A stretch of DNA of 32,000 nucleotides from an uncultured Chloroflexia bacterium (GTDB taxonomy: Bacteria; Chloroflexota; Ktedonobacteria; Ktedonobacterales; JADMIN01), in the NCBI GenBank assembly GCA_963718915.1, contig CAVRAI010000001.1, positions 390,001 through 422,000 of the forward strand, read 5' to 3'. The notes under the pieces were generated by a model. It saw only the letters and a program-made list of their open reading frames with translations. It did no database searches and was not told the origin of the DNA. The position numbers and the translations under genes are program-made. Below are positions 612 to 30,276 of the stretch, piece after piece (the stretch's first letter is position 1; each line of letters begins with the position of its first letter).

Positions 612-1007
612 TCAATTCGCGGTCATGACAATCTGTCTGGCCCAGCGCAGGACGACCCGCGCGTTATCCAGTAGTTGCTGCGCGGTGTCGGGGCCAACCG
701 CGTCGTCAGCCAGCTCGGCAGGCAGATCATCCGTCAGGAAATTGGCTGGATGATAGGGCGTCAGCGTATCCAGGATATCCAGCAGGTCGGGCGGCGCGTT
801 CACCAGCATACCCAGCGCGCGCAGGTCGTGATCGTAGGTGGCGCGCGCGTCGTGGCTGAGCACGTAGACCGCTTGCAGCGACTTCTCGGCCACCTGATTC
901 GCCAGGTCGGCGCAGTTATAGTAGTTGGAGGCAGCCAGCGCCAGACCCGCGCTGGAGTGATCCTGCGCCGCCTCCGCCCAGATGCCCAGCGCCTCATCGA
1001 GACTCAT
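612..1007 (-). CDS. HEPN domain protein (orphan; no adjacent nucleotidyltransferase partner seen)
   Basis: 131-aa helical ORF with an AAGGAGG RBS 9 nt upstream (revcomp of 1016-1022). It has AEKSLQAVYVL...HDARATYDHDLRAL, which gives an R-x4-H motif (R55, H60) at the position typical of HEPN domains. Confidence 0.7.
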   Translation of the reverse strand: MSLDEALGIWAEAAQDHSSAGLALAASNYYNCADLANQVAEKSLQAVYVLSHDARATYDHDLRALGMLVNAPPDLLDILDTLTPYHPANFLTDDLPAELADDAVGPDTAQQLLDNARVVLRWARQIVMTAN

Positions 1008-1252: not shown

Positions 1253-2590
1253 TCAACTCGCCAGGTCGGCGGCCAGAATGGCAGGCAACTCGGCGATGGC
1301 GACGCGGCGCTGCGCCATGCTGTCGCGCTCGCGAATCGTCACCTGCTGATCCTCCAGGCTCTGGAAATCCACCGTGATGCAGTACGGCGTGCCGATCTCG
1401 TCCTGCCGCCGGTAGCGCTTGCCGATGTTGCCGCCGGTATCGTCGTACTGCGTCAGGCCCAGCCCGCGAATTGAATTGTGTACCTCGTGGGCCAGATTCA
1501 CCAGCGGCTCCTTGCGGGAGAGCGGCATCACCGCCGCCTTCACCGGGGCCAGCTTCTTGCTCAGCCGCAAGACCACGCGCTTCTCCCCCTCGACGATCTC
1601 TTCGTCGTAGGCGTCGCAGAGGAAGGCGAGCGAGGTACGGTCGGCGCCCGCGGACGTCTCGATAATGAACGGCACATAGCGCCGCTGAGTGGCGTCATCG
1701 AAGTAGCTCAGGTCTTTGCCGCTGAACTCGATGTGCCGCCGCAGGTCGAAGTCCGTCCGGTCGTGAATGCCCTCGATCTCGCGCGGGCCGAACGGGAACT
1801 CGTAATAGACATCCACCGCCGCGCGGGCATAGTGCGCCAGTTCGTCGGGGCCGTGCGGATGGAAGGTGAGATGGTCGCGCTTTATGCCGAGATTGAGATA
1901 CCACTGGAACCGCTGCTCACGCCAGTAGTCGAACCACTGCGTCTCGGACTCGGGGTCGATGAAAAACTGCATCTCCATCTGCTCGAACTCGCGCATGCGA
2001 TAGGTGAAGTTGCCGGGGCTAATCTCGTTGCGGAACGCCTTGCCGATCTGCGCGATGCCAAAGGGCAGCTTCCGGCGCATGCTCTGCTGCACGTTCTCGA
2101 AGTTGACGTAGATGCCCTGCGCCGTCTCTGGCCGCAGATAGACCAGCCCGGCATCCTCTTCGATTGGCCCCATGTACGTCTTGAACATCAGGTTGAACTG
2201 GCGCGGCGCGGTGAGCGTGCCACGCTTGCCGCAGGTGGGGCAGACATCTGGGTCGCCGCTCATCTCCTCCACATGGTCGGCGCGGAACCGGCCCTTGCAG
2301 TTGGTGCAGTCCACCATCGGGTCGGTGAAGACATCCTCATGGCCAGATGCCTGCCAGACACGGCGCGCCATCAGGATGCTGGCGTCCAGGCCCACCACAT
2401 CATCGCGCACGCGGGTCATTGTATCCCACCAGCTGCGCTTGACGTTGTTCTTGAACTCGACGCCGAGTGGGCCATAGTCGAAGACCGCGTTGATTCCGCC
2501 GTAGATTTCGCTGCTGGGGAAAATGTAACCGCGCCGTTTGCACAGCGAGATTATGTCCTGCATTCGGTCGTTGCTTGCGCTCTTATCCAT
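1253..2590 (-). CDS. glyQS: Glycine--tRNA ligase (class II, dimeric GlyQS type)
   Basis: MDKSASNDRMQDIISLCKRRGYIFPSSEIYGGINAVFDYGPLGVEFKNNVK... is the hallmark GlyRS N-terminus, and the C-terminal anticodon-binding region is present. I prefer the ATG at 2590 (RBS GGAGCGGGGGAAGG just upstream) over the GTG at 2614 given in the ORF track. Confidence 0.95.
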   Translation of the reverse strand: MDKSASNDRMQDIISLCKRRGYIFPSSEIYGGINAVFDYGPLGVEFKNNVKRSWWDTMTRVRDDVVGLDASILMARRVWQASGHEDVFTDPMVDCTNCKGRFRADHVEEMSGDPDVCPTCGKRGTLTAPRQFNLMFKTYMGPIEEDAGLVYLRPETAQGIYVNFENVQQSMRRKLPFGIAQIGKAFRNEISPGNFTYRMREFEQMEMQFFIDPESETQWFDYWREQRFQWYLNLGIKRDHLTFHPHGPDELAHYARAAVDVYYEFPFGPREIEGIHDRTDFDLRRHIEFSGKDLSYFDDATQRRYVPFIIETSAGADRTSLAFLCDAYDEEIVEGEKRVVLRLSKKLAPVKAAVMPLSRKEPLVNLAHEVHNSIRGLGLTQYDDTGGNIGKRYRRQDEIGTPYCITVDFQSLEDQQVTIRERDSMAQRRVAIAELPAILAADLAS

Positions 2591-2693
2591 ACGTACCTTC
2601 CCCCGCTCCATCACAGCGATGAGCCACGGCTACCATGTGGCTATGCCTCGCCAGAGTGTCCTCGTGATCCTCGCTGGCAGAGACGCGATGCGC

Positions 2694-2729
2694 AAAAAAA
2701 GGAAGGCGGGGGAACTCGCCCCTGCCTTC
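2694..2729 (-). terminator. Intrinsic-terminator-like hairpin plus U7 tract inside the glyQS 5' leader
   Basis: Minus strand reads GAAGGCAGGGG-cgaguu-CCCCCGCCUUC followed by C and UUUUUUU. That is an 11-position stem with one C.A mismatch. It lies about 60 nt after the predicted TSS and about 100 nt before the glyQS ATG. Confidence 0.6.
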
Positions 2730-2793
2730 GCGGCGTCTACTCTGCACAGCGACATAGCTGAACTGATGTCTGGCTGGGCCACACTTCAACGGA

Positions 2794-2822
2794 ATTCTAT
2801 CCCGTGCGGGGAGGGCTGTCAA
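2794..2822 (-). promoter_or_regulatory. Sigma70-type promoter for glyQS leader (TTGACA-17-TAGAAT)
   Basis: Minus strand has TTGACA (2822-2817), a 17-nt spacer and TAGAAT (2799-2794). This is a near-consensus match by eye. Confidence 0.6.
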
Positions 2823-2831
2823 TGACGGTAC

Positions 2832-2913
2832 CTGGCACGAATAGTGTTGCGTGAACCCGTATCTACGGTATAATGCGCGCGGCACTACCCGGCACATCAG
2901 GAGGCGTCCGGTG
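2832..2913 (+). promoter_or_regulatory. 82-bp repeat copy 1: TTGCGT-16-TATAAT promoter plus conserved 40-nt leader, pointing into the 3' end of the minus-strand TIR gene
   Basis: 76/82 identical to 4880-4961 by hand alignment. -35 at 2847-2852 and -10 at 2869-2874. The 50 nt TACGGTATAATGCGCGCGGCACTACCCGGCACATCAGGAGGCGTCCGGTG are identical in both copies. Confidence 0.6.
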
Positions 2914-3037
2914 TTGAGCTTTGCTCTCACGCGCTGATCATCCTGAAACGAATTGCACCTCATTGTACTCATGCCCAGCCATCGCATAGCAGAACATGGA
3001 TTCGCATCTTCACAAAGTTTATATGATCCACTTAAAA

Positions 3038-4681
3038 CTAGGCACTCTCTGTTAGCCTACTCAAAAGGCCACGCATTTCAAGCTCCCTCTTATGGAGAAG
3101 ATCTGCCATATCATAATCTTGATGTTGTAAGGCAATGTCTTTCTCGAACATAAGGGCTTCTAGCGCTTGCGGGATTGATAGTTTTTCGGCGTTTTCAGAG
3201 CTTCCAGAATTCTTAAGCGCTTCGATAACAGCTGCCCGCACCCTTTCGAGATTGACACCTAGAGCTTCCAGCACTCCAGCGGCGATGCCCTCACCCTCCC
3301 GCACCATTCCCAAGAGCAAATGCTCGGTACCAACGTAGTGATGGTTCAGTCGCCGTGCCTCATCAACTGCAAGCTGGAGTATTGTTTTGGAGCGTGGCGT
3401 CAACCCTATCTGGCTCGATTCAACATGGTCGCCACGCCCAATGATAAATTCGACAGCACTACGCACCTTGCCAAGTTCGATTCCCAACTTGGCCAATACC
3501 CTGCCAGCTACTCCGTTGCCTTCACGTACCAGTCCTAGCAATAGATGTTCGGACCCAATGTAGTTATGCTCGAAGCGCCGCGCTTCATTCTCTGCCAGGT
3601 GCAACACAGAGTGAGCACGCTCAGTAAAAAAGTCTAATTTGTCAATATCACCAGGCGTACGGTATGATTCAAACGACATGTCTGGCAAGCTTCTCTTCAT
3701 TAACAGTGATTTGCCAGCAATCCCATCTTCCGCTTGCCGTTTCCATCCCTGCCATTCGACACTTGTGGCATCGAATTGGACCCCACGCTGACAGACTTTC
3801 AACGCTTTGTCCCATTGGCCGAGCGCGAGTAACCACTGCACCTGTTCTCGCAAGATTTGTTCGCGCTTCTCTCGTCCATGGGTGCAGACATAGGCATTCT
3901 CCCAGGCCAATTGGGCTGCTTCAATATCTGGTGCGTCCTGGGCCATCAGCCATCGTGCCAATATTTGCCAGTAATCGCCCCTGAATTCATTTATTTCTAG
4001 CGCGTGCCGCAGATTCGCAAGCGCATTTTGCTGTTCGCCAAGCCTATATTGGGCTTGAGCCAATTCTGCATAAATGCGCTCATCGCGCGTGTTATCAGAA
4101 AATACGAGCGCCCTTTGCGCAAAGAGCATTACATCGTGCCACAGTTCCTGGTGAAAAGCCTCATGCACCTCATTGGCCAATGCAAGTGAACGTTCTGCCT
4201 GAGGGGCTAGTGCTAATGCATCTTTATCAGTTGCGCGCTCTGAAGCGGTTCCACTAATTACGCGTCCTGAGCTCTGCCAGTGAGCTTCCAGGATGTCTGG
4301 CGGCTGTTCTGGTGAGAGATCCACCTGTTGGAATAGATGCAGGAACGAGGAAAGTCTGCTGATGTCGGTCCGTGTCAGGGTTGGATCAATACTTATAGGG
4401 ATAATGCGATGAGTACGGACCGAAAAGGTTAGATCAAGCGCGAGGCGTGTTTCTGCGCGAACCCAGGTCGCCACGACACTATGTTTAGAGAGGACAAGAA
4501 GAAAGATTGGACGACCCTCCAACTCCGTCTGTATACGGTCGAGCCAATCATCTCCGCTCTGCAGTTGCTCGCGGTCATAGAATGCGTCCATGCCCATAGT
4601 CGCTGTAAGCCACGTGTAAAGACGTTCACAAAAAGGGGTATCGAAATGCGAGTGGCTAATGAAGATTTTTTCCCCTGCCAT
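3038..4681 (-). CDS. TIR - TPR-like repeats - double Clp_N repeat - UVR-like motif fusion protein (547 aa)
   Basis: TIR: KIFISHSHFD and LLVLSKHSVVATWVRAE (Glu77). TPR-like helices span aa ~165-315. Clp_N x2: ARRFEHNYIGSEHLLLGLVREGNGVAGRVLAKLGI and ARRLNHHYVGTEHLLLGMVREGEGIAAGVLEALGV. UVR-like: KDIALQHQDYDMADLLHKRELEMRGLL. RBS GAAGGGA lies 7 nt before the ATG. Confidence 0.85.
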   Translation of the reverse strand: MAGEKIFISHSHFDTPFCERLYTWLTATMGMDAFYDREQLQSGDDWLDRIQTELEGRPIFLLVLSKHSVVATWVRAETRLALDLTFSVRTHRIIPISIDPTLTRTDISRLSSFLHLFQQVDLSPEQPPDILEAHWQSSGRVISGTASERATDKDALALAPQAERSLALANEVHEAFHQELWHDVMLFAQRALVFSDNTRDERIYAELAQAQYRLGEQQNALANLRHALEINEFRGDYWQILARWLMAQDAPDIEAAQLAWENAYVCTHGREKREQILREQVQWLLALGQWDKALKVCQRGVQFDATSVEWQGWKRQAEDGIAGKSLLMKRSLPDMSFESYRTPGDIDKLDFFTERAHSVLHLAENEARRFEHNYIGSEHLLLGLVREGNGVAGRVLAKLGIELGKVRSAVEFIIGRGDHVESSQIGLTPRSKTILQLAVDEARRLNHHYVGTEHLLLGMVREGEGIAAGVLEALGVNLERVRAAVIEALKNSGSSENAEKLSIPQALEALMFEKDIALQHQDYDMADLLHKRELEMRGLLSRLTESA

Positions 4682-4719
4682 GGATAAATCCCTTCAGAAC
4701 GCTTTTGCGGTTCATGGCA

Positions 4720-4748
4720 ATTGTAACTCTAGTAGCTTCCTACGTCAA
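4720..4748 (-). promoter_or_regulatory. Sigma70-type promoter of the TIR-Clp_N gene (TTGACG-17-TACAAT)
   Basis: Minus strand has TTGACG (4748-4743), a 17-nt spacer and TACAAT (4725-4720), about 40 nt upstream of the ATG at 4681. Confidence 0.55.
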
Positions 4749-4879
4749 ACATGCATTAATCACTTTTTGGAAGATGGTTGGCTACCTAATCTGCATAAGT
4801 CTCTTGGGACAGGAGGTGCCGCATCGTGAAGACTGGCAGCGTAAAACCTAACTTGCCTTTGTACGACAAGGCTGTGCAG

Positions 4880-4961
4880 CTGGCACGAATAGTGTTGCAT
4901 GGATGCGCATGTACGGTATAATGCGCGCGGCACTACCCGGCACATCAGGAGGCGTCCGGTG
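4880..4961 (+). promoter_or_regulatory. 82-bp repeat copy 2: TTGCAT-16-TATAAT promoter plus conserved leader upstream of the 5011 gene
   Basis: Direct repeat of 2832-2913. -35 at 4895-4900 and -10 at 4917-4922. The leader continues about 50 nt to the ATG at 5011. Confidence 0.6.
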
Positions 4962-5010
4962 AACGGGGCATGCGGGGACACGCGGGGGCGCGTGAAGAAA
5001 AGGCAGGGGC

Positions 5011-5793
5011 ATGGGCGAGGATACAGAACAACGCGATGTCATGGTCGAACCGGAAGAGACGCCCAGAGAGAGCAAGAACCCATCGTCGCCCACCGCATCG
5101 GATCAGGCGGCTGATGAGCCGCGACTGGTGCGGCGAATCGCTCCGTGGGCGATGGCGGTCATCGCGCTGATCCTCGTCGGTATGCTGGCGTTGCTCTTCG
5201 CGGACACACACTCGACCGACGCCGCCGTGCGCCTAACGCCGACCGCCACGCCCGCGCCGACGATTACCCCCGCGCCGACGGCGACGCCAGAGCCAATCGA
5301 TGGCTTCCAATTCTATCGCGATCCCGCGAGCCACTTTATCATCCAGTATCCCCTGAACTGGGAGGTCTCCTCCGATAACACGAGCCAGGGCATCGAGTTT
5401 TGCGACGACTGCACGAATCCCGGCTATATCGTTCAGGTCAACACGCCGAGCAATCTGGGCGATGTTGGGCCGCCACCCAACCAGAGCTCCGCCGCCGACT
5501 GGGTGACCTATGCGTTGAATGGACTCGCCTCGCATCTACAATCCGGCACCCTGACGGTGCAAGGCCCACAGCAGGCCATCGTGATCGGCGGGGTGGTCTG
5601 GCAGAGCGGCGGCGCGACGGTCTCTGACAGCAGTGGCGGCGCGCGCTTCCGGGTGCAGGTCTATGCGACGGTCTATGAAGGGAAGCCCTACATTCTGGTA
5701 CTCTCTACCACAGAGGATCGCTTCACCGCCGGAACCATTCAGTTCTTTGGGCCAATGCTGCAGAGCTTCGAGTTTATTCCGCAGACGCCGTAG
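5011..5793 (+). CDS. Membrane-anchored hypothetical protein: acidic N-terminus, one TM helix, Pro/Thr linker, extracytoplasmic alpha/beta domain
   Basis: 260-aa ORF. TM helix WAMAVIALILVGMLALLF and linker TPTATPAPTITPAPTATPEP. The C-terminal domain (FIIQYPLNWEV...YILVLSTTEDRF) resembles PsbP/DcrB-like folds, but I cannot confirm that. Confidence 0.6.
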   Translation: MGEDTEQRDVMVEPEETPRESKNPSSPTASDQAADEPRLVRRIAPWAMAVIALILVGMLALLFADTHSTDAAVRLTPTATPAPTITPAPTATPEPIDGFQFYRDPASHFIIQYPLNWEVSSDNTSQGIEFCDDCTNPGYIVQVNTPSNLGDVGPPPNQSSAADWVTYALNGLASHLQSGTLTVQGPQQAIVIGGVVWQSGGATVSDSSGGARFRVQVYATVYEGKPYILVLSTTEDRFTAGTIQFFGPMLQSFEFIPQTP

Positions 5794-8791: not shown

Positions 8792-8797
8792 GGAGTG

Positions 8798-8835
8798 CCC
8801 TCTCCGCCAGCCCCTCCGCGCGTCGGGGAGGAGAG
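8798..8835. repeat. CCCTCTCC-type hairpin repeat, copy a (terminator-like, directly after purA stop)
   Basis: CTCTCC (8800-8805) pairs with GGAGAG (8830-8835), and an inner CCCC (8811-8814) pairs with GGGG (8825-8828). This is a divergent member of the family listed below. Confidence 0.5.
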
Positions 8836-8890
8836 CCAGATACACCTCTTGGGGCGAATAGCATGTCACACGATAGATAGGAACGCGCAA

Positions 8891-9142
8891 ATGATGGAGT
8901 CGCTTTCCCAGGTCGTGTTGCTCGTTGATATGCCAGAGCATCGATTGCGCGTAGGTGACGTGGGCGTTGTGGTTGATGTGCATCCGGGCACACCTGCAAC
9001 GGGTAATGTCGCAGGCTATAGCGTCGAGTTCGTTACCATGAGTGGGGAAACGATGGCAGTACTCGAACTTGAAGAAACACAGATACGCCCTGTCCGCTCA
9101 ACCGATATTGCCCATGTGCGCGAGCTTGCCAGCGCCTCGTAA
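8891..9142 (+). CDS. DUF4926-like small protein (83 aa)
   Basis: MMESLSQVVLLVDMPEHRLRVGDVGVVVDVH...YSVEFVTMSGETMAVLELEETQIRP fits the DUF4926 pattern (V.L..DLPE.GL..GD.G.VV.V......Y.VEF....G.T.A...L...Q). The internal ATG at 8891 is preferred because the longer ORF from 8795 starts inside the hairpin repeat. Confidence 0.6.
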   Translation: MMESLSQVVLLVDMPEHRLRVGDVGVVVDVHPGTPATGNVAGYSVEFVTMSGETMAVLELEETQIRPVRSTDIAHVRELASAS

Positions 9143-12341: not shown

Positions 12342-13655
12342 GTGGCCAGAGCCATGAGCGCATTTCATACGACCTTCGTCAGCCATGCCCACGTCGATAA
12401 CGACCTCTGCGACCGCTTCGTCGCCGCATTGCGGGCACGCGGGATAGACATCTGGTATGACCGCAACAACGCCCAGGCGGGCCATTTCCTCGACCGGGAG
12501 ATCGAGCAGCAACTGAAGCAGCGCTCCGCCTTCGTCCTGCTGATGACGCAGCAGGCGCTCGACTCCTTCTGGGTGCAACAGGAGCTAGACGCCTATCGCG
12601 GGCTGATGGCGCAAGATCGCGCGCGTCTGCTGTTGCCCGTGCGCATCGGCCCCTGCCAGGTGACGCCGTTTCTCAATGCCCTGCTCTGGATCGACGCGCT
12701 GGCGATGCCCTTCGACCAGGCGCTAGACGAGATCGCCGCCGCGCTGATGGTGCAGGGCGCTCCATCGGCTCAGCCGCCCGTTGTCACACCACCGCCCCGC
12801 GATAGCTTGCCGCCGCTCGGCCCTGCGCCCGCGCCTGCGAATAGCGCGCCCGCGCTGCATCTCACCCCCATGTCGCTTTATAATCTCGGCTTTCGTGGCT
12901 ACCGCGTGAACGGCGTCGAGTGCATCCTGCCACCGCTCTGCCCGGTACCCGGTGGCGTCTTCACGATGGGCAGCGACAAAACCCGTGACCAAGCGGCGTT
13001 TGACGGGGAGACGCCACAATATCCCGTCGAGGTGGATGGCTTCGCCATTGGCCAGCATCCCGTCACCGTCGCCGAGTACGCCTGCGCCGTGCGCGCCAAA
13101 GCGGTACGCGAGCCATCGAAAGTCGCCCACCCTGATGTGGATTGGACGAAGCAGCAGACACACCCCGATCACCCGGTGGTCTGCGTCTGGTGGAAAGATG
13201 TGCTTGCCTATGCGCAGTGGCTGGCCAAGACGACAGGGCAGCGCTGGCGACTGCCGAGTGAGGCGGAGTGGGAGAAGGCGGCGCGTGGGGATGACGGGCG
13301 TATCTATCCCTGGGGCGACACCTTCGACAAGGTTCGCTGCAACACCAGCGAAAGCGACATCAGAACGACGACGCCCGTAGGCAGCTACCCCAGTGGCGAG
13401 AGTCCGTATCACGTCCAGGATATGACTGGCAACGTCTGGGAGTGGACGAGTACGCTGTATCAGCCGTATCCCTACCGTAAAAACGATGGGAGAGAGAATC
13501 CAAATTCCATTGATAGTCGAGTGCTGCGTGGCAGTTCGTGGGTCGGCTACCAACAGAACATGCGCGCAGCCTATCGCCTCCTCGGCCGACCCGCCTTCCT
13601 CCACGTCTACAGCATTGGGGTTCGTCTGGCGGTCTCGGCGCCTGGTTCAGCATAA
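12342..13655 (+). CDS. TIR domain - Pro-rich linker - FGE-sulfatase (SUMF1/formylglycine-generating-enzyme-like) domain protein
   Basis: TIR: TTFVSHAHVDN, IWYD and AFVLLMTQQALDSFWVQQE (Glu81). FGE-sulfatase: GGVFTMGSD, HPVTVAEY, HPVVCVWWKDVLAYAQWL, RLPSEAEWEKAARG, YPWGD, GNVWEWT and RVLRGSSW. An alternative start is the ATG at 12354. Confidence 0.85.
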   Translation: MARAMSAFHTTFVSHAHVDNDLCDRFVAALRARGIDIWYDRNNAQAGHFLDREIEQQLKQRSAFVLLMTQQALDSFWVQQELDAYRGLMAQDRARLLLPVRIGPCQVTPFLNALLWIDALAMPFDQALDEIAAALMVQGAPSAQPPVVTPPPRDSLPPLGPAPAPANSAPALHLTPMSLYNLGFRGYRVNGVECILPPLCPVPGGVFTMGSDKTRDQAAFDGETPQYPVEVDGFAIGQHPVTVAEYACAVRAKAVREPSKVAHPDVDWTKQQTHPDHPVVCVWWKDVLAYAQWLAKTTGQRWRLPSEAEWEKAARGDDGRIYPWGDTFDKVRCNTSESDIRTTTPVGSYPSGESPYHVQDMTGNVWEWTSTLYQPYPYRKNDGRENPNSIDSRVLRGSSWVGYQQNMRAAYRLLGRPAFLHVYSIGVRLAVSAPGSA

Positions 13656-18634: not shown

Positions 18635-18964
18635 CCGACGACACGGACATCTATCCCCATAGACCCCCACAACTTGACGGGAAGAGTAGCCAAAACAGGC
18701 AGACATCCCGGCTATATTCTTGTGCCTGCTTCCTCTCATCGGGTACAATGGCATCCGTCTCAAACTAGATTTCTGGCTATTATCGCATGGCTGCCGAACC
18801 GCTGCCCGCCCTCATTGGCAGGCGGGTGGCCGCTGGCGCAGCCAGGAACGATAGCGCGCCGCACTCATCGCATGCAAACGACATACTAAAACAGTAGATG
18901 ACATCGCACGACTGCATAGTCAAGCATAGTCAAACATACACAAGGACAAAGGGGGCGATTGCCA

Positions 18965-19756
18965 GTGACGACACGGGTATTTGCGATCGCGAATCAAAAG
19001 GGTGGCGTAGGCAAGACCACCTCGACGATAAATCTGGGGGCATATCTGGCGAAAGCGGGCCGCAGAACGCTCATCATCGACCTTGACCCACAGTCCAACA
19101 CGACGACCGGCCTCGGCGTGGATTCTCACGCGGTTGGAACCTCCATCTACGAGGTGCTCGTAGATGTGAGCGTTAACCCCGCCGATGTCATCCGCAAGGA
19201 GATCCGCCCCAACCTCGCGCTCCTCCCGGCCAAGGTCGATCTCTACGCCGCCGATATCGAACTGGTCTATCTGGATAACCGTGAGTACCGGATGCGGCAT
19301 ATCCTCGACCAGATCCGCGACGACTACGAGTTCATCTTGATCGACTGTCCACCGTCGCTCGGCCTACTGACCGTGAACGCGCTGACCGCCGCCGATGGGG
19401 TAATTCTGCCCCTCCAATGCGAATACTTCGCCCTCGAAGGTATGCAACAGTTGCTCAATACCATTCGGCTGGTGCGCGACCGCCTGAACAACAAGGTGAT
19501 GTTGTTTGGCGTGGTGCTGACGATGTTTGACTCGCGGACCAACCTCGCCACAGAGGTGGTCAATGAGGTCAGCCAGCACTTCCCCAAGGAGAAGTTCGAA
19601 ACACTGATCCCGCGCAACGTGCGGCTTTCGGAGGCGCCAAGCTTTGGCCTCACTGTGCTGGAGCACGATCCGCGCTCTCCGGGCGCGCTGGCCTATCAGA
19701 AACTGGCAGAGGAAGTAATCGCTCGCGCAGAAATCATGGAGTCGCTCTATGCCTAA
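18965..19756 (+). CDS. parA: ParA/Soj chromosome-partitioning ATPase
   Basis: VFAIANQKGGVGKTT deviant Walker A, then IIDLDPQSN and LIDCPPSLG. The GTG at 18965 (AAAGGGGG 9 nt upstream) is preferred over the TTG at 18959 in the track. Confidence 0.9.
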   Translation: MTTRVFAIANQKGGVGKTTSTINLGAYLAKAGRRTLIIDLDPQSNTTTGLGVDSHAVGTSIYEVLVDVSVNPADVIRKEIRPNLALLPAKVDLYAADIELVYLDNREYRMRHILDQIRDDYEFILIDCPPSLGLLTVNALTAADGVILPLQCEYFALEGMQQLLNTIRLVRDRLNNKVMLFGVVLTMFDSRTNLATEVVNEVSQHFPKEKFETLIPRNVRLSEAPSFGLTVLEHDPRSPGALAYQKLAEEVIARAEIMESLYA

Positions 19757-20834
19757 ACAACGATTCGGTCTCGGTCGTGGCCTGGATGCGCTGATTCCCG
19801 GCGCCAGCCTCGCCGATGTCGCGCCCCTCTCGGAAGATACGCCGCTCGATTCGAGCCTCTCGCCCTCGTCGGTCTTTGAGGCGCCGATAGACGCCATCTC
19901 GCCGAACCCACAGCAGCCACGCGCCGTGGTGGATGACGATCCGCAACTGCGCGAACTGGCCGCCTCGATCCGCGAGTATGGGCTGCTCCAGCCGTTGCTG
20001 GTGACGATCAGCGGGCAGGACGACCACGGTCCGCTCTTCCAGCTGATCGCGGGCGAGCGCCGCTGGCGGGCCGCGCGACTGGCGGAACTGCGGATGGTTC
20101 CGGTGGTGATTCGCGAGGCAACGCCGCAACTGATGCTGGAGATGGCGCTGATCGAAAACCTCCAGCGCACCGACCTCAACCCGCTGGAAGAGGCGCAGGG
20201 CTATCTGATGCTGATGGATGAGTATGGGCTGACGCAGGAAATGGTCGCCCAGCGCATCGGACGTAACCGCGCCACGGTTGCGAATACGGTGCGGCTGCTC
20301 CAACTGCCCGACGAGGTGCGCGAGGCGCTGGTGACGATGCCCCGCGCGTTCACCGAGGGCCACGCCCGCGCCGTCTTACAGATCAATGGCGACGCGGCGC
20401 GCATCAACGCGATGAAGATGATTATCGCGCAGGGGATGAGTGTGCGGCAGGCCGAAGAACTGGCGCGCCGGTTAAATGAGCGGGCGCTGGGTATCGCCAA
20501 CGACCGCCGCGGCTCGGTGACGCGCACCCAGAGTGGCGAGACGCGCGCGCTGGAGGAGGAGTTCACCCGCGCCGTCGAGATGAAGGTACGGCTCCAGCGG
20601 ACGACCCGCGGCAAGGGCCAGCTTACGCTCTACTTCACCAACGACCAGCAACTCGAAACGCTCTACTCGCGGCTGGTCGGCGCGATGCGCGCCGGGCAGA
20701 ACGGCCACGACGCCTACGCCCTGCTGGACGGCAGCGAGCCATTGAACCTGTCGTACGACGACCTCGCCGACGAAGACGACGACCTGATCGACGACGAGGA
20801 TGACGGAGACGACGGAGATGACGCTGGCGAGTAG
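19749..20834 (+). CDS. parB: ParB/Spo0J partition protein with strongly acidic C-terminal tail
   Basis: GLGRGLDALIP, ISPNPQQPR, LLQPLLV, LIAGERRWRAARLA, the HTH LTQEMVAQRIGRNRATVANTVRLLQLP, and the tail DDLADEDDDLIDDEDDGDDGDDAGE. It overlaps parA by 8 nt. Confidence 0.9.
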   Translation: MPKQRFGLGRGLDALIPGASLADVAPLSEDTPLDSSLSPSSVFEAPIDAISPNPQQPRAVVDDDPQLRELAASIREYGLLQPLLVTISGQDDHGPLFQLIAGERRWRAARLAELRMVPVVIREATPQLMLEMALIENLQRTDLNPLEEAQGYLMLMDEYGLTQEMVAQRIGRNRATVANTVRLLQLPDEVREALVTMPRAFTEGHARAVLQINGDAARINAMKMIIAQGMSVRQAEELARRLNERALGIANDRRGSVTRTQSGETRALEEEFTRAVEMKVRLQRTTRGKGQLTLYFTNDQQLETLYSRLVGAMRAGQNGHDAYALLDGSEPLNLSYDDLADEDDDLIDDEDDGDDGDDAGE

Positions 20835-21997: not shown

Positions 21998-23569
21998 GTG
22001 AGTGACTCGGCCCAGCGGCGGCCTTCCTGGCGGATGGCGCTGATCGTCCTGGCGGTTGCGGTGGTGCTAGCGAGCGTAGGCGCGTTTGCCCTCGTGCGCC
22101 TGCGCCAGCCAGACGCCCCTCAGCCGCGCACAGCACGGACGGCCCAGCGGACGCCCGCTCCGACGTGCGCGCAGCAATCGCCATCATCGTCGTCATCGTC
22201 ATCCTCGGCATCATCGTCATCCTCGGCAACGGCGACGAATATCCGCGTCAGCAACGACGCTTACAGGGCGCACAGCGAGCCGATGCTTGCGATCAACCCC
22301 GCGAATCCGCTCAATCTGGTCGGCGGATCGAAGTTCTTCACCGACCCGGCGCGCTACCGCTTCCAGATTGGCACGTACACCTCCTTCGACGGCGGCTGCA
22401 CCTGGATTGATAACGGCGTATTGCCCGGCTTTGCGCCCGGCGAGACGACCTCCGACGTGACGGTCGCCTTCGGGCCGGAGAATCGCGTCTATATCGCGGT
22501 GCTCTACACCGACAATGTGAGCGATAGCGGCATCGCCGTTTTCACCTCCACCGATGGCGGCAAGACCTTTGGCAAGGCGGTGCCCGCCTATGATGACCCG
22601 ACCGGCGCGGTCTTCAGCGACAAGCCGTGGATCACCGTGGATATGAGCAGCGGCCCGTATCGTGGCAGCGTCTATGTCGTCTGGTCGTATGACTATGGCG
22701 GTACCTGCGGCTTCGAGAACTCCTGCAAACAGGGGGTTGGCTTCGCGCGCTCGGTTGATGGTGGCGCAACGTTTTCGGCGGCGCGTCAGGTGGAGGGCGA
22801 TGCGCCATTCTGCACGAATCCCGCACCGGGGCGCTCGTCCGATGATCGCGCGTGTGACGCTGCGCTGGGCGCGGTTCCAGCGGTTCTGCCCGATGGCACG
22901 CTGGCGGTAGCCTATGACTACATGGATGTCACCAGCAGCGGCAAAATCCCTACGCGCCTCGCGGTCATCACCTCGCCCGATGGCGGCGCGACCTGGACAG
23001 CGCCCGTGTTGATTGCCACCATCTCCGATATTCTCGGCGTCTTTCGGCCAGACCGCTATCGTAACGCCTCGCTGCTCGCCTTCGCCGCCGGTCCAGCGCG
23101 TGGCAGGCTCTACGTCGCCTGGGCGGATAAGCGGATTGGCGATAGCGATATCCTGTTCGCCTCGTCCAGCGATCAGGGTCGGACGTGGTCAGCGCCCGCG
23201 CGCGTCAACGACGATGCCACCAGGGACGGCGCCAACCAGTTCCAGCCGCAGCTTGCCGTCGCACCCAATGGTGTCGTGACCGTCTCATTCTTCGATACCC
23301 GCCGCGATAGCCACCACCATCTGATCGATGTCTACCTGGCCCAGTCGGTGGATGGCGGCGCGAGCTTCCTGCCAAATGTGCGCGTGACCACGCAGAGCTG
23401 GGACCCGACGGTGGACGCGCCTGTCGATGGCAGCGGCCTGCAATTCATCGGCGATTATCAGGGGCTGGCGGTGAGCGACCAGTACGCCCTCCCCTTCTGG
23501 AACGATACGCGCACCGGCAGCCAGGAGATCTTCATAGCGCTGTTCCCGAGCGCCCAACCGCAACACTGA
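21998..23569 (+). CDS. Membrane-anchored BNR/Asp-box repeat beta-propeller protein (sialidase-like fold)
   Basis: GTG start with a GGAGGGAG RBS, an N-terminal TM helix and a poly-Ser linker. Five Asp-boxes are present: STDGGKTF, SVDGGATF, SPDGGATW, SSDQGRTW and SVDGGASF. Confidence 0.8.
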   Translation: MSDSAQRRPSWRMALIVLAVAVVLASVGAFALVRLRQPDAPQPRTARTAQRTPAPTCAQQSPSSSSSSSSASSSSSATATNIRVSNDAYRAHSEPMLAINPANPLNLVGGSKFFTDPARYRFQIGTYTSFDGGCTWIDNGVLPGFAPGETTSDVTVAFGPENRVYIAVLYTDNVSDSGIAVFTSTDGGKTFGKAVPAYDDPTGAVFSDKPWITVDMSSGPYRGSVYVVWSYDYGGTCGFENSCKQGVGFARSVDGGATFSAARQVEGDAPFCTNPAPGRSSDDRACDAALGAVPAVLPDGTLAVAYDYMDVTSSGKIPTRLAVITSPDGGATWTAPVLIATISDILGVFRPDRYRNASLLAFAAGPARGRLYVAWADKRIGDSDILFASSSDQGRTWSAPARVNDDATRDGANQFQPQLAVAPNGVVTVSFFDTRRDSHHHLIDVYLAQSVDGGASFLPNVRVTTQSWDPTVDAPVDGSGLQFIGDYQGLAVSDQYALPFWNDTRTGSQEIFIALFPSAQPQH

Positions 23570-23865
23570 CTTCGGCCATCAAGTCCAACGTCCATAGGCT
23601 GGTCGGAACTAAAGACCAAGCGGGTGCGTTTCAAGCGAACGTGCTTTCGCGTCCCAAACAGATGTAGGGGGCTTACCCGCTGATGCAATGCTTGCCAGCC
23701 TACAAATTTGGCGCCCAGGCTAGCATTGTCCTCAACACCCCCAACAAAAAAACCAGCTACGGCATATAACACTATGAGAGGCATTCAACACTTCGAGCGT
23801 TGCACTTCTCAACACTCGACCGACCCACCATTGGCGAAACGCTCGGCCAGGGCAAGAAGGAAGGG

Positions 23866-24513
23866 ATGGAAAGCGTGATCTCCCGAGAGGATGCTGATGA
23901 TGCCCTGGCATTGCGCCGCTGTCAGCAAGGTGATGTTTCAGGGCTAGAAGTGCTCGCAGCGCGCTACCAACTGCGAGCCATCCGTATCGCTTATCTGCTA
24001 CTGCGGGACCACGCTGCTGCAGAAGATGTAGCACAAGACAGTTTCCTTCGCGTCTTTCAGGCAAGCGCGCAGTTTCACGAGGGAACGCAATTCGCCCCAT
24101 GGTTCTACCGCATTGTGTTAAATACTGCGCGTCAATACCAGCGCACATTGCGTCGGCGGCGAGAGAGCAGCCTTGATATTCTAATGCTCTCGGATGCCAC
24201 CAGCCCCCAGCTGCCTCTCGCGGAAGATCCCTTTGTGAGTGCGGAACAGACAGAGAGGCGCGCTGCCGTGCTAGATGTGCTCATGGCATTAACGATCAAA
24301 CAGCGTGAGGCGCTTGTCCTCCGATACTTCTGCGGCCTGAGTGACAGCGTCATTGCGCAGATCCTTAATTGCCCTCACGGCACAGTTCGCTGGCGCCTGC
24401 ATGCGGCGCATCGCGCGTTTGAGCGCGCCGCATCTACCAGATACCCGTGGCTCCTTGACCGTGAGAGCCCACTTTCCCAGGTATTAGCACGAGTTGAAGG
24501 AGGAACGAACTGA
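23866..24513 (+). CDS. ECF-type sigma-70 family RNA polymerase sigma factor
   Basis: Region 2: AEDVAQDSFLRVFQASAQFHEGTQFAPWFYRIVLNTARQYQR. Region 4: LTIKQREALVLRYFCGLSDSVIAQILNCPHGTVRWRLHAAHRAFE. The start at ATG 23866 is tentative. Confidence 0.85.
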   Translation: MESVISREDADDALALRRCQQGDVSGLEVLAARYQLRAIRIAYLLLRDHAAAEDVAQDSFLRVFQASAQFHEGTQFAPWFYRIVLNTARQYQRTLRRRRESSLDILMLSDATSPQLPLAEDPFVSAEQTERRAAVLDVLMALTIKQREALVLRYFCGLSDSVIAQILNCPHGTVRWRLHAAHRAFERAASTRYPWLLDRESPLSQVLARVEGGTN

Positions 24514-25688
24514 TGTCACGGCATGACGACGAGCGCCTCATTGCATGCCTATTGCAGGATGCCGCGCAGAGCGTGCCATCGGATGTCGATCTTACACCTC
24601 GCCTGCGTCCCCGATTGGCGCAAACCCAGGAAGAGACGAAGGGCACTATGTTCGCAACACGTCAGATGTCTTCTAAGGCACATCGAAGCGTTCCAATCAT
24701 TGCCATCGCCTTGGTGGCCATCCTCGCGATCTCAGCCTTTGCATTCGCCCGGCCGCTGATCTCCTCTTGGCTTGGCGATACCGGTATGAAAGGGTTAGTG
24801 TTGGGAAATGGTTCACTCATCAATCAGAGCGTGACTGTCAACGGCATTACCCTTCGATTGGAGCAGGGGTATGCTGATGCTGCTCGCACCGCACTGACGA
24901 TGCAGATTAGTTCGACGGGATCAGATGCGCAAAGCCTAGTCACGCCAATGCTAGACCAAACCCATCTGGTCGACAGCCAAGGCCGCATCTACACTGCGCT
25001 GGTTGGCACACAGGTCCAGAACGATGGATTAATGGAATTCACGCCGTTGCCCAGCAGTGCATTGAGTACTCAGCAAAGCTTTACACTTGTGGTGACGCAG
25101 ATGAATCGTCCCTCTAGCACCGAGCTGATCCCAGGCAACTGGCAGATCACGTTCAAGCTTCATCCTCACGCTATCCGCTCGATTGAATACAATCTGCCAA
25201 GCGCCATCATCGATGGCGTATCCGTTCAACCAGAACGCCTTGATGTGACACCAGCAGGAGCTCGCCTGTTCGTAAAAATCAGTGGTCTGAAGCCAAGTAC
25301 CTCACTATTTGGCCTGACCAATTTCGCCCAAACCGGCGGAGATAGCATTACCGGGTGCAACCCTGATTCCCGCTCTTGTGTTGGCGCGAGCAGCACCAGT
25401 GGGGGGGCAACTCTTAACCTCCAAGAGCCAGATGGGCAACGTCTCGAGTTGAGCGCTGTGGAAGTGGTGGATATGGCAACCGGCGTTGGCAGTATGCCGA
25501 CCGCAGACCAGATCGTGGGTCCAAGTGGCTCCGTCGTTTTGGAGTTTCTCTTTTGGGAGCCCTTCCACAGAACCCAAGGGACGGCGCATCTCACCATCAA
25601 TCAGATCAGGCTTAGCTCAGGCATAGGGTCCTCCTCACAAGACCAGATGCTTAATGGCCCCTGGGCATTTGATCTGGCTCTCCAATGA
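24513..25688 (+). CDS. Putative anti-sigma factor (single-pass membrane protein, DUF4179-like layout)
   Basis: It is translationally coupled to the sigma gene (TGATG overlap). It has a short cytoplasmic N-terminus, the TM helix VPIIAIALVAILAISAFAFA and a large extracytoplasmic domain. The function is inferred from position only. Confidence 0.55.
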   Translation: MSRHDDERLIACLLQDAAQSVPSDVDLTPRLRPRLAQTQEETKGTMFATRQMSSKAHRSVPIIAIALVAILAISAFAFARPLISSWLGDTGMKGLVLGNGSLINQSVTVNGITLRLEQGYADAARTALTMQISSTGSDAQSLVTPMLDQTHLVDSQGRIYTALVGTQVQNDGLMEFTPLPSSALSTQQSFTLVVTQMNRPSSTELIPGNWQITFKLHPHAIRSIEYNLPSAIIDGVSVQPERLDVTPAGARLFVKISGLKPSTSLFGLTNFAQTGGDSITGCNPDSRSCVGASSTSGGATLNLQEPDGQRLELSAVEVVDMATGVGSMPTADQIVGPSGSVVLEFLFWEPFHRTQGTAHLTINQIRLSSGIGSSSQDQMLNGPWAFDLALQ

Positions 25689-25852
25689 GAGTGAGTGCTG
25701 AGGTTCACGCTCTCCATCGGAGCGGAGCCGACACCCCGATTCCCATCGAGGCCAACACACATTTCAGCAAGAGAAAGAAGCATGCGCCTGCGTAGAAATG
25801 CGAATAGCTCCCGTGCTCAGGCACACCAGATAGACAGCTGCCGGAATCGCCA

Positions 25853-26279
25853 TCAGCGCTGGTTACGATGCGCGAGCAAACCGACCAGCAAACTCGCGCA
25901 GGCAAGCACGATGCCAGTAATTGTCACACACAAGCCTTCGCCGATCAGTCGTGAAGTAGCATTCCCCTCTGCAACGGATATTCGGATTCCGCAGGACGGT
26001 TGAGCATGGGGCGCCTGAATCCAGAGCCAGATCGTCGCGATAAGCATCAGGGTCACCGCGCCGACGATGCTGATTCGCAAACTGCCGAGCAGCCGTCCCA
26101 TGCATACAGATACCCCAGTGCTGGCGCCCATTGCAGGTCGACAAACAGGCAACCGGATGATAACAAAATACGCCTAGCGCCACCGTCACCAGCGCCGTGG
26201 TCAGCGACAGAATTACGGCCTCAATCACGAGCGGGTTTGGACCAGCGCCTACGCAGTGAAACGGCGCAAAGCCTTTCAT
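25853..26279 (-). pseudogene. Small 3-TM membrane protein, apparently split by a frameshift
   Basis: Strong AAAGGAG RBS 5 nt before the ATG at 26279. Frame 1 gives MKGFAPFHCVGAGPNPLVIEAVILSLTTALVTVALGVF and then Arg/Cys-rich junk. An overlapping frame, open from 26173, gives ...RISIVGAVTLMLIATIWLWI...LCVTITGIVLACASLLVGLLAHRNQR*. The T4/A4 run at 26165-26168 is a plausible slip site. Confidence 0.4.
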
Positions 26280-26551
26280 GGACGCTCCTTTCAGTGCATG
26301 GCATCATGACTTCAAAATGCAAGTATGACGCTCAATGAGGCTGACACGTTTTGCGTACACGAAGCCAACTCAAGAATTCGCGACTCTCACCGGTGATGTT
26401 GGTCGTGGCGTTCGTTAGCAGGAGGCATTCAGAGACAGAGCCAATCTAGGAGATCGCACTTATCGGCGCAGTTCTGACGGGACTGGGCCAGAGTACTGGC
26501 GCTTTCAAAGATTCTCAAAACCAATACGTACGTCAGCATGGTCGAGAAATT

Positions 26552-26803
26552 TTGAGACGCTTCACACTATGCCTCTATTCAAGTTCTTACTCCACTGGTT
26601 ATGGTTGGTCCCTTGCCGGCGCGAACGCCTTCAATTATGGTCTTTACGGTTACCCGCCCTCGACCGCGTACGAGGCGGACGGCTTTTTCCGGTTCAACGG
26701 GCCATTCGGGATTGGCTGCGTCTCGGGAGACAACTATATCGATTTCTATGGCAGCGGGTCATACCAAGTGTCATATGACCAAGCCTCCGAATATGGCTGT
26801 TAG
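26552..26803 (+). CDS. Hypothetical Gly/Tyr/Ser-rich small protein (weak call)
   Basis: 83-aa ORF from a TTG, reading YSSSYSTGYGWSLAGANAFNYGLYGYPPSTAYEADGFFRFNGPFGIGCVSGDNYIDFYGSGSYQVSYDQASEYGC. The frame is open back to 26450 and there encodes a hydrophobic stretch (IALIGAVLTGLGQSTGAF), but no canonical start codon is present in that part. Confidence 0.25.
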   Translation: MRRFTLCLYSSSYSTGYGWSLAGANAFNYGLYGYPPSTAYEADGFFRFNGPFGIGCVSGDNYIDFYGSGSYQVSYDQASEYGC

Positions 26804-26959
26804 CCTAAGGCGCGCTCAAGACGTGCATCAAGCGCACGAGAGAAGATAAAACGTGCACTAATCAAGCGCCTGAGAATAGGTGCAAACGTCTCTGTCTAAG
26901 TGGATGGACAGTGACCTGTTATGGTCGACGTCACTCGCGGCCGCACTCGCTGCTCTGCC

Positions 26960-26995
26960 CCCCTCTCCTCCCAGGAGAGGGGCTGGAGGTGAGGT
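26960..26995. repeat. CCCCTCTCC hairpin repeat, copy f
   Basis: CCCCTCTCC (26960-26968), loop tccca, GGAGAGGGG (26974-26982), then CTGGAGGTGAGGT. Confidence 0.8.
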
Positions 26996-27073
26996 CTCAC
27001 CGGACGCCTCAAGACGTTGTTGACCACTCACGTAGCGCATTTACAAAGGGGTAGACATCTACAAGAGGCGCCA

Positions 27074-28548: not shown

Positions 28549-28630
28549 GACGCTTCGCCGTCGCGCTCCCATGTCGTCCTGGGTGGCGCCACACGTCATT
28601 GCTATCCTGGTTGGAGCCACACCCGGGATG

Positions 28631-29032
28631 TCAATGAGCGTCGGAGTCATCAGATCCAGACGAATCAGACGAATCAGACCAGTAGGCTTCCGCCGCTTCT
28701 GCCGCGTCCTGCTGGCGGAAATACCGTTTGATCATCTCCACGCGATGCCGTACGGCAGGATCACCATTGTCAAGGGTGATAGCTCCTTCACCGCCATGGA
28801 TGTCCTCCAAGGCATTGCTGAACTGCGCGAGCGCTATTTCCTGATCCAATTGTTCCCATGAGGCGATGCCAAGATAGGCCATTTGCTCCTCTGTGGTGAA
28901 TTGCTGCTGCATGTGCATAAAGAAAGTGGTATCATCCACCTCCTCAAGTGGGATACCCTGGCTAAGAAAGTGCGCCTCAGTCGCAGCCATGAGTGCGGGA
29001 ATACGTTGTTCAACCGCTTTCTTGTCGAGCAT
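28631..29032 (-). CDS. Acidic hypothetical protein (133 aa) downstream of dinD
   Basis: ATG at 29032 with an AGGAGAGGAAGC RBS. MLDKKAVEQRIPALMAATEAHFLSQGIPLEEVDD...YWSDSSDSSGSDDSDAH. In the ORF track it is fused to dinD only because of the dinD frameshift. Confidence 0.6.
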   Translation of the reverse strand: MLDKKAVEQRIPALMAATEAHFLSQGIPLEEVDDTTFFMHMQQQFTTEEQMAYLGIASWEQLDQEIALAQFSNALEDIHGGEGAITLDNGDPAVRHRVEMIKRYFRQQDAAEAAEAYWSDSSDSSGSDDSDAH

Positions 29033-29054
29033 GCTTCCTCTCCTGAGCGGTACC

Positions 29055-29971: not shown

Positions 29972-30066
29972 GATCTTCCCCTGTGCTGACTGTTGTCCAT
30001 CATGTACTATGGGTATGTCCTGTAGGCGCTCACACCGCCTTCAGGCACAGGCAGTCTAGGCCTCTT

Positions 30067-30276
30067 CTAGGCTGCCTGCTCGACTTTTCCCCAGCGCTCC
30101 GATTGTTGCGCCAGCTTCTCTACTTCCGCGCGGGGAATGAGTTTCACCCGCTTGTCGAGCGGATCCACCTTCACGGTAAAGGCGTTCTCCTCGATCAACG
30201 CCGCCATTTTGCGCGGACTAATGCCCAGGTATTCACGTACCTCTTTGGCGGTCATCATTTCGCTGTCGGCTGTCAT
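30067..30276 (-). CDS. Small helix-turn-helix DNA-binding protein (excisionase/MerR-like HTH_17 type)
   Basis: 69 aa from the ATG at 30276 (GAAGGAGGG RBS). MMTAKEVREYLGISPRKMAALIEENAFTVKVDPLDKRVKLIPRAEVEKL. The upstream part of the 175-aa track ORF is implausible. Confidence 0.65.
   Translation of the reverse strand: MTADSEMMTAKEVREYLGISPRKMAALIEENAFTVKVDPLDKRVKLIPRAEVEKLAQQSERWGKVEQAA

Follow-up and report, generated by a model that had tools for sequence, protein, structure and literature searches.

Known bacterial TIR NADases, enzymes that cleave nicotinamide adenine dinucleotide (NAD+), include AbTir, TcpB/BtpA, Cat1, ThsB of Thoeris and the TIR-APAZ component of SPARTA, and have a TIR fold and a catalytic-glutamate motif in common. 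The motif glutamate is the catalytic residue in AbTir, TcpB and PdTIR, and the active sites of TIR NADases form by self-association. Thoeris needs ThsB and an adjacent ThsA (SIR2, SLOG, Macro), and SPARTA and short prokaryotic Argonaute (pAgo) systems need TIR-APAZ and an adjacent pAgo. The gene considered here lies in a 32,000-nucleotide stretch from an uncultured Chloroflexia bacterium (contig CAVRAI010000001.1, positions 390,001 to 422,000; hereafter the window), and its product, referred to as the TIR protein, joins a TIR domain of the same fold and motif to TPR-like helices, a double Clp_N module and a UVR-like tail. APAZ/pAgo, a ThsA-type effector gene, a CRISPR link and a secretion context are all missing here; the neighbours are GlyRS and a PsbP-like gene, and no pAgo gene lies near the TIR gene. 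In place of such partners, activation would have to come from the protein's own TPR and Clp_N parts.

The arrangement follows the effector-scaffold-terminal sensor logic of STAND/NLR TIR sensors (TIR-NLR, Avs-like) and of plant integrated decoys, where a borrowed host domain serves as bait. FGE-sulfatase (FGS) acts as a terminal binding or sensor module in conflict systems and in bacterial STAND receptors (PMC7159879, PMC13581612). However, the TIR protein is not a STAND, because no NACHT/NB-ARC NTPase was detected in it with Pfam or NCBIfam, and it belongs to neither Thoeris nor SPARTA, as ThsA and APAZ/pAgo are lacking. The vWA-MoxR FtsH ternary systems of multicellular bacteria (Kaur et al. 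2020, PMC7159879) likewise hold ClpN repeats in the slot for repeat or binding domains, where that computational study found them to replace a beta-propeller; these conflict systems are multi-gene, whereas no vWA/MoxR genes were found at the TIR locus.

The second group of relatives is formed by the ClpC proteins. ClpC/ClpC1 share 55-57% N-domain identity with the TIR protein, together with K85 and the residues of the pArg1 and pArg2 pockets, which in ClpC bind phospho-arginine (pArg); the hairpin that follows this domain in the TIR protein resembles the UVR-type M-domain of ClpC (PMC12583610). The pockets (E32A/E106A, T7D) and K85 have been functionally defined in ClpC, in the resting state of which the N-domain pockets touch the M-domains, these contacts being displaced by pArg, MecA and cyclic peptides (PMC12583610). 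The AAA+ modules of ClpC/ClpC1 are absent from the TIR protein and its UVR motif is degenerate; without AAA+ modules it is not a Clp unfoldase and is unable to unfold or deliver substrates. Mycobacterial and actinobacterial ClpC2 is a parallel, as it couples an ATPase-less, ClpC-N-like ligand-sensing module with a conserved pArg pocket to an output (PMC13345244, PMC10030653), and the pocket Thr is essential to pArg binding by ClpC2 (PMC13345244). ClpC2 consists of an N-terminal DNA-binding/dimerisation domain and a single Clp_N-like C-terminal domain, in contrast to the TIR-TPR N-terminus found here, and its output is DNA binding and its own derepression (it is a pArg- and cyclomarin/rufomycin-responsive repressor and an antibiotic sponge) rather than TIR activity. 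It keeps the F2/F80/E89 antibiotic pocket and one pArg site, whereas the TIR protein lacks that pocket and keeps two pArg sites. Similarity of the TIR protein to ClpC2 (E of about 1e-12 to 1e-15; PDB 9p2p, 8ad9) is far weaker than to genuine ClpC (1e-42). No HTH was detected in it by Pfam and, as it is without a DNA-binding part, it is not a ClpC2-type repressor.

A third group consists of the uncharacterised TIR-TPR-FGE-sulfatase proteins (such as P0063 and P0123-P0134), single partnerless genes that share the same chassis (aa 1 to ~320) and its invariant glutamate but end in FGE-sulfatase or further TPRs instead of two Clp_N repeats and a UVR-like hairpin. The TIR protein can be placed among the effector-scaffold-sensor TIR proteins already known from multicellular bacteria, and what is new is its Clp_N-UVR terminal module. 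The reading favoured here, to which an even chance is given, is that of a ligand-gated single-chain TIR NADase with Clp_N as its input, acting as a stand-alone conflict or stress effector. All domain calls of an earlier note on this DNA, which was made from the letters alone, are supported, that of UVR in a degenerate form.

The TIR assignment was obtained by several routes. Pfam TIR_2 (PF13676) matched aa 6-123 with 69.8 bits, well above its curated cut-off of 28 (E=3.8e-19), and PF01582, with 23.5 bits, also exceeded its cut-off of 21.3. An AlphaFold2 (AF2) model of the N-terminal 345 aa, built with seven homologues (run 2; mean pLDDT 84, pTM 0.73), displays strands 5-9, 32-35, 59-64, 92-97 and 119-121 alternating with helices in a flavodoxin-like five-unit fold. 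A Foldseek search of the PDB with this model matched the TIR half best to the TIRs of SPARTA TIR-APAZ (21-26% identity over ~155 columns, probability 1.00), and the TIR-TPR family profile matches TcpB, PdTIR, AbTIR and Cat1. The residue E77, which the earlier note had proposed as catalytic, pairs in HMMER alignments with the W-x-x-x-E motif glutamate of AbTir, TcpB/BtpA, PdTIR and the TIR of PDB 9m0n; it is invariant in all 21 aligned chassis-family members and lies within helix 72-88, the third helix of the AF2 model. In sequence as in fold, the domain bears every hallmark of the NADase class, and the TIR protein is, as judged from its sequence, a probable NAD-destroying enzyme.

The Clp_N module is complete, as had been claimed. 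Pfam Clp_N (PF02861) recognised two repeats (E=2e-35), and aa 350-490 align end to end with the N-domains of M. tuberculosis ClpC1 and B. subtilis ClpC in a PDB search (E of about 1e-42 to 1e-43), with identities of 57 and 55%, respectively. The ClpC1 sequence used for residue mapping was verified against the PDB alignment, and that of B. subtilis ClpC is consistent with it. In this mapping, T353/E378 and T428/E453 correspond to T7/E32 and T81/E106 of the pArg pockets (B. subtilis numbering), both of which are intact, and K432 corresponds to the conserved K85 of ClpC. The same five residues are kept in P0002 and P0004, the relatives described below, so that both predicted pArg pockets are conserved. 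No AAA/P-loop family was found in Pfam or NCBIfam scans of the protein, and NCBIfam ClpB/ClpC/ClpK models match the N-domain only (57 bits against cut-offs >1200).

Whole-protein searches were swamped by thousands of Clp_N proteins, and word-indexed searches with the chassis gave only 3 (single sequence) and 6 (profile) proteins; the family was revealed by exhaustive HMMER. With aa 1-345 as query, 22 cluster representatives were recovered at E<1e-30, spanning aa 1 to ~315 (phmmer E 1e-54 to 1e-30; 32-66% identity). Of the 20 representatives scanned, 13 end in FGE-sulfatase, 5 have long TPR arrays at this end, and the C-termini of the other 2 could not be assigned. P0063, the nearest relative by chassis, is 66% identical over aa 1 to ~320 and has FGE-sulfatase in the place of Clp_N, the alignment breaking at about aa 320-345. 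Only 3 proteins among the 5.8 billion clusters searched have the full architecture; the other two (P0002 and P0004; 534 aa each, 58-62% identical) were found in an ENA assembly of forest soil and in a JGI metagenome, and the three come from three different samples. As just three proteins carry Clp_N-UVR, Clp_N is taken to be a swapped terminal module. Scans of genomes and metagenomes with the chassis profile gave six loci, i.e. five in genomes and one distant locus in a metagenome; the genome loci are all in metagenome-assembled genomes (MAGs), four of which are labelled Ktedonobacteria, Chloroflexota or unclassified and one Proteobacteria. The chassis therefore appears, on these sequences, to define a small lineage-specific TIR-TPR-X family of Ktedonobacteria/Chloroflexota, in which Clp_N-UVR is a rare replacement of the usual terminal module. 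The SHSH motif, W73, E77 and the pArg-pocket residues are all conserved, and the whole arrangement is under purifying conservation across the three diverged copies. Though extremely rare, the architecture is no isolated invention but a module-swap variant of the TIR-TPR-X family in a lineage that fuses Clp_N to many different domains. The proposal that Clp_N is the sensing module is strengthened by its position in the FGE slot, by the intact pArg pockets, by the experimental ClpC2 precedent, in which Clp_N as a pArg/antibiotic sensor is coupled to an output (PMC13345244, PMC10030653), and by phages, one of which makes a documented adaptor mimic that binds ClpC (PMC6873191) while others encode Clp_N-only proteins.

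Table 1. Positions in the window of the TIR gene, its encoded domains and the surrounding insert
Feature	Positions	Strand	Basis
Complete gene, TIR - TPR - linker - Clp_N x2 - UVR-like tail (547 aa)	3038..4681	-	ORF list and Pfam
TIR domain, aa 5-143, five beta-alpha units	4253..4669	-	Pfam TIR_2, AF2 model, Foldseek, profile matches
E77 codon, predicted catalytic glutamate, W73-V-R-A-E77 (W73-x-x-x-E77), start of helix alpha-C	4451..4453	-	alignment
TPR-like helical repeat domain, aa 153-330	3692..4225	-	sub-threshold Pfam, family profile, AF2, Foldseek
Low-confidence linker, aa 331-346, where relatives switch C-terminal module	3644..3691	-	pLDDT, alignment
Double Clp_N, aa 347-492, ClpC N-domain-like	3206..3643	-	Pfam, PDB matches, residue mapping
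Degenerate UVR motif of the ClpC M-domain type, a helical hairpin at the C-terminus (aa 503-546)	3044..3175	-	paralogue alignment, hhalign
Shine-Dalgarno-like GAAGGGA	4689..4695	-	7 nt before ATG, read from sequence
Promoter-like TTGACG-17 nt-TACAAT	4720..4748	-	consensus scan 10/12, upstream of TIR gene
Low-GC insert, GC 0.50, TIR gene its sole gene	2914..4879		composition, bounded by direct repeat
Left copy, 82-nt direct repeat	2832..2913	+	repeat search
Right copy, 82-nt direct repeat	4880..4961	+	repeat search

The features are collected in Table 1. The open reading frame proposed in the earlier note was confirmed with an ATG start, and the database protein P0001 is identical to its product. 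The TPR-like helices also hold: despite single-sequence Pfam TPR matches that all remained below their cut-offs, the family profile matched consensus TPR proteins with E down to 1e-50, and the segment is all-helical in the AF2 model (pLDDT ~90) and superposes on the TPRs of CTPR, OGT and MamA by Foldseek. pLDDT falls below 50 at aa 332-345, the chain being disordered from aa 332 in run 2. The UVR tail proposed earlier was recovered in part. Pfam UVR did not match the tail even at E<=10; nevertheless, it aligns to a segment of the paralogue P0013, which itself matches PF02151 at E=5.5e-7, and hhalign against UVR-positive paralogue segments gave a probability of 97.3% (E=1.8e-11). According to the full-length AF2 model (run 1), two predicted helices (503-519 and 523-546) make the tail a hairpin; this model was built on a 4-sequence alignment, reached a mean pLDDT of 56 with TIR <50, and was used solely for the secondary structure of the tail. 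With the first Clp_N-UVR unit of paralogues that carry several such units, module and tail together (aa 347-547) share 56% identity.

Ktedonobacteria and Chloroflexia contain a large expansion of Clp_N-only and multi-Clp_N proteins (P0003-P0120), which typically contain three double repeats, in many cases together with UVR linkers. Fusions join such arrays to GerE HTH, to a BFN nuclease and Ser/Thr kinase, and to DinB (P0015, P0027, P0048, P0062), and many of the proteins are misnamed 'ClpA ATP-binding subunit' though they are without an ATPase. A second TIR protein is encoded 7.7 kb away from the TIR gene (12342-13655, plus strand); it has 437 aa, combines TIR_2 with FGE-sulfatase without TPRs and has a native GC content at third codon positions (GC3) of 0.76. 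Its TIR is 30% identical to that of the TIR protein and keeps the W-x-x-x-E glutamate; between its FGE domain and that of P0063 the identity is 56%. Evidently, the lineage recombines these modules. In two MAGs (L002 and L006), a TIR-TPR-FGE gene lies downstream of the same Peptidase_M24, fused shikimate kinase/DHQ synthase and small-gene block, as deduced from matching sizes and order of open reading frames; this block would indicate vertical inheritance of that family member, unlike the transferred copy in the window.

In the model of a ligand-gated enzyme, the N-terminal TIR would be a glutamate-dependent NAD+ glycohydrolase, the TPR array would form a scaffold controlling self-association, and the C-terminal module on its flexible linker would serve as the input, a role that FGE-sulfatase (C-type-lectin-like) would fill in most relatives. 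The input here would be a ClpC-type N-domain with an M-domain-like UVR hairpin, i.e. the adaptor and substrate docking surfaces of ClpC minus the ATPase. At rest, the UVR hairpin may occupy the Clp_N pockets intramolecularly, or the module may otherwise keep the TIR domains apart; this state is modelled on ClpC, in which the N-domain pArg pockets touch the M-domains. A pArg-marked protein, or a factor targeting the ClpC N-domain such as a peptide or a phage adaptor mimic (SPO1 Gp53 engages ClpC in this way; PMC6873191), would then free the module, and TIR-TIR assembly would lead to NAD+ cleavage and to growth arrest, abortive infection or a nucleotide signal. The defence role and the trigger are inferred, as are the enzymatic activity and autoinhibition; the architecture suggests a cell-arrest switch triggered by protein-quality-control signals or by attacks on Clp.

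Several observations weigh against this model. The full-length AF2 model is too poor to reveal intramolecular docking. The UVR hairpin is degenerate, its aromatic tip Y523 being kept in neither P0002 nor P0004. The cyclomarin/rufomycin pocket is altered at aligned positions (F2 to L349, F80 to L427, E89 to Q436), as are the ecumicin positions (L92 to V439, L96 to R443); the residues critical for binding of these three antibiotics were taken from published work (PMC10030653, PMC13345244). No arginine kinase has been shown in the lineage, no search for one having been made, a point that bears equally on the stress-switch explanation discussed below. PADLOC and NCBIfam defence models match the TIR part only: Aga_TIR of PADLOC is covered at profile positions 4-113 of 430 and TIR-NLR at 3-108 of 824. 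In Pfam, ThsB_TIR reached 13.8 bits against a cut-off of 21.2. That no PADLOC model extends beyond the TIR supports the previous statement that no characterised defence system with this architecture is known; a literature search found no paper on TIR combined with Clp_N. Finally, the homologues stand alone and were not found in recognisable defence islands; the genes beside them are unrelated ones of metabolism or housekeeping, P0063 alone lying near Fic/VbhA and a phage portal gene.

A prokaryotic integrated-decoy receptor, in which a copy of the ClpC docking surface (N-domain and M-domain hairpin) would be wired to a TIR NADase without an NTPase so that an attack on Clp by a phage or antibiotic, or a pArg surge, results in NAD+ depletion, is considered unlikely; it would define a modular TIR-TPR-X receptor family with an exchangeable bait domain. 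So is its strict form, the guard or decoy model of the earlier note, in which Clp_N-UVR would mimic the docking surface of host ClpC and fire only on a ClpC-targeting phage protein or antibiotic. A faithful mimic would be expected to resemble genuine ClpC N-domains across phyla, and the module is 55-57% identical to them; however, its Clp_N core is as near to local Clp_N paralogue units (66-68%) as to its own orthologues (65-67%) and may therefore stem from the paralogue pool and not from ClpC. A decoy would also be suited by the existence of a phage-encoded, adaptor-like protein that engages ClpC (PMC6873191), by the Clp_N-only genes of phages, by the sensing and sponging of antibiotics directed at ClpC1 by ClpC2 (PMC10030653), and by the horizontal acquisition of the TIR gene itself. 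Against this, the three full-architecture members were found without phage or defence-island association, and the antibiotic-pocket residues are not conserved.

The intact state of both pArg pockets also fits a physiological switch for proteotoxic stress, in which Clp_N reads pArg-marked proteins and NAD+ depletion or a TIR signal would lead to dormancy or programmed cell death in a filamentous multicellular bacterium; ClpC2 has been proposed as such a pArg-responsive regulator (PMC13345244). The housekeeping neighbours, the other Clp_N fusions with regulatory outputs (HTH, kinase) and the restriction of the chassis to Ktedonobacteria/Chloroflexota, apart from the one genome locus of five labelled Proteobacteria, are in line with this explanation. 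It is nonetheless rather improbable, as the gene in the window was acquired recently from a foreign source, an unusual history for a core stress circuit, and as a variant found in 3 proteins is very rare.

Less probable still is a ClpC-associated adaptor, regulator or substrate, in which Clp_N-UVR would dock on ClpC M-domains or adaptors and the TIR activity would be secondary; TIR-TPR might be recruited to ClpCP and the toxin kept low by constant degradation, or ClpC assembly might be modulated. The TIR protein carries both N-domain-type and M-domain-type elements, and in ClpC the N-domain pockets touch M-domains, which pair head to head (PMC12583610); ClpC2 has moreover been proposed to compete for N-domain ligands (PMC10030653). 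The invariant catalytic glutamate and conserved TIR core nevertheless point to an enzymatic role, the sister proteins hold FGE-sulfatase, which has no Clp connection, in the same slot, and the residue at the UVR tip varies. The protein might also be a chimera that is neutral or without function, either a recent accident of domain shuffling or an inactive TIR serving as an interaction domain only. This would suit an extremely rare variant in a lineage that freely shuffles Clp_N and TIR modules, but is hardly credible given an intact reading frame, a whole architecture shared by three proteins that are 58-62% identical and come from independent samples, and the conservation of E77, W73, the SHSH motif and the pArg-pocket residues.

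If the ligand-gated model is true, the TIR protein would be a minimal receptor made of one polypeptide without an NTPase or partner, with an exchangeable input module (FGE-sulfatase, TPR, Clp_N) that can be read from the sequence, and hence a convenient system for studying the gating of TIR enzymes. It would provide the first link of pArg/ClpC-adaptor biology to NAD+-based immunity or cell death, and extend the ClpC2 idea, in which Clp_N senses small molecules or pArg, to an output that is lethal. The main interest lies in the specific, readily testable hypothesis posed by the sequence itself, namely the gating of a TIR NADase by pArg or by ligands of the ClpC N-domain. Should the model prove wrong, the locus would remain a clean case of module swapping and of horizontal transfer of a TIR gene. 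The locus also draws attention to the very large and essentially unstudied Ktedonobacteria Clp_N expansion (HTH, kinase, nuclease and DinB fusions) and to the Clp_N-only genes of phages, which, taken together, suggest a contest over the docking surface of ClpC.

The TIR gene is compositionally foreign and horizontally acquired, in agreement with the earlier note. GC is 0.50 over the 1966 bp of the insert against 0.63 on either side, and GC3 of the TIR gene is 0.50, compared with values of 0.85 in GlyRS, 0.83 in PurA and 0.76 in the TIR-FGE gene resident in the window. Since the two homologues with readable loci have a host-like GC of 62-65%, the window copy is taken to be recently acquired. 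The insert is flanked by GlyRS (1253-2614, minus strand) and the PsbP-like gene (5011-5793, plus strand). The two copies of the bounding repeat are 93% identical at a spacing of 2048, with mismatches clustered in 15 nt; a 46-nt identical core occurs just twice in the window (0 expected), and the repeat far exceeds the length of a normal target-site duplication. A metagenome scan for the 46-nt core gave 0 matches, and no empty site or other copy was found. Integrase genes, inverted repeats and a tRNA that could serve as integration site are absent around the insert. Rfam gave no match over the whole window at the gathering threshold or over 2400-5100 at E<=1, and a T-box in the GlyRS leader, a potential marker of the native intergenic region, was not found (Rfam).

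On its plus strand, the repeat holds a TATAAT box and AGGAGG. It was considered whether the left copy contains a duplicated promoter from which the TIR gene would be transcribed in antisense; this was rejected, as the -35 of such a promoter matches at just 3/6 positions and the scan did not call it. Of the near-consensus promoter and ribosome-binding site assigned earlier to the TIR gene itself, both motifs are present; the TIR-gene region, however, contains 3 promoter-like sites against 1.9 +/- 1.3 in shuffles, i.e. no enrichment, and the promoter is of little weight because such sites are no commoner than in shuffles.

No conserved neighbour gene of the chassis family was found at the loci examined. 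P0004 is neighboured by an Fe-dependent repressor and a small DUF5615 gene, P0063 by aroB/aroK with pepQ to one side and by a phage portal gene with a Fic/VbhA pair to the other, and two further loci (L005 and L006) by genes for a histidine phosphatase, GT2 glycosyltransferase, FAD monooxygenase, pentapeptide-repeat protein and S9 peptidase. In the window, the genes near the TIR gene are GlyRS, the PsbP-like gene, a spermidine-synthase-like gene, PurA and parAB. In searches of phages, plasmids (tblastn) and viral contigs the chassis was absent, phage and plasmid matches being confined to the Clp_N part. Mycobacteriophages Myrna (gp251) and Phabba (gene 260, L009 2489-3154) encode Clp_N-only proteins of ~220 aa that are 44-54% identical to the module and are possible mimics of the ClpC1 docking domain. 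Their annotation reads 'Clp family protein, ATPase domain', although the match covers the N-domain only.

Elsewhere in the window, two small genes of toxin-antitoxin type lie amid housekeeping genes, encoding a HEPN-domain protein (612-1007, minus strand; E=1.6e-5) and a DUF4926 protein (8795-9142, plus strand; E=1.2e-15). A strong AT-skew at 14.5-15.5 kb was traced to an ordinary polytopic membrane protein. The parA/parB pair (18959-20834, plus strand) confirms the chromosomal context, which is possibly origin-proximal. Patches of lower GC (0.53-0.58) occur at ~23500-27000, with an ECF sigma factor and a DUF4179 protein (23800-25688), and at ~28600-31000, with a Bro-N protein (28631-29971, minus strand) and an HTH_17 protein (30067-30594, minus strand), which suggests remnants of mobile elements.

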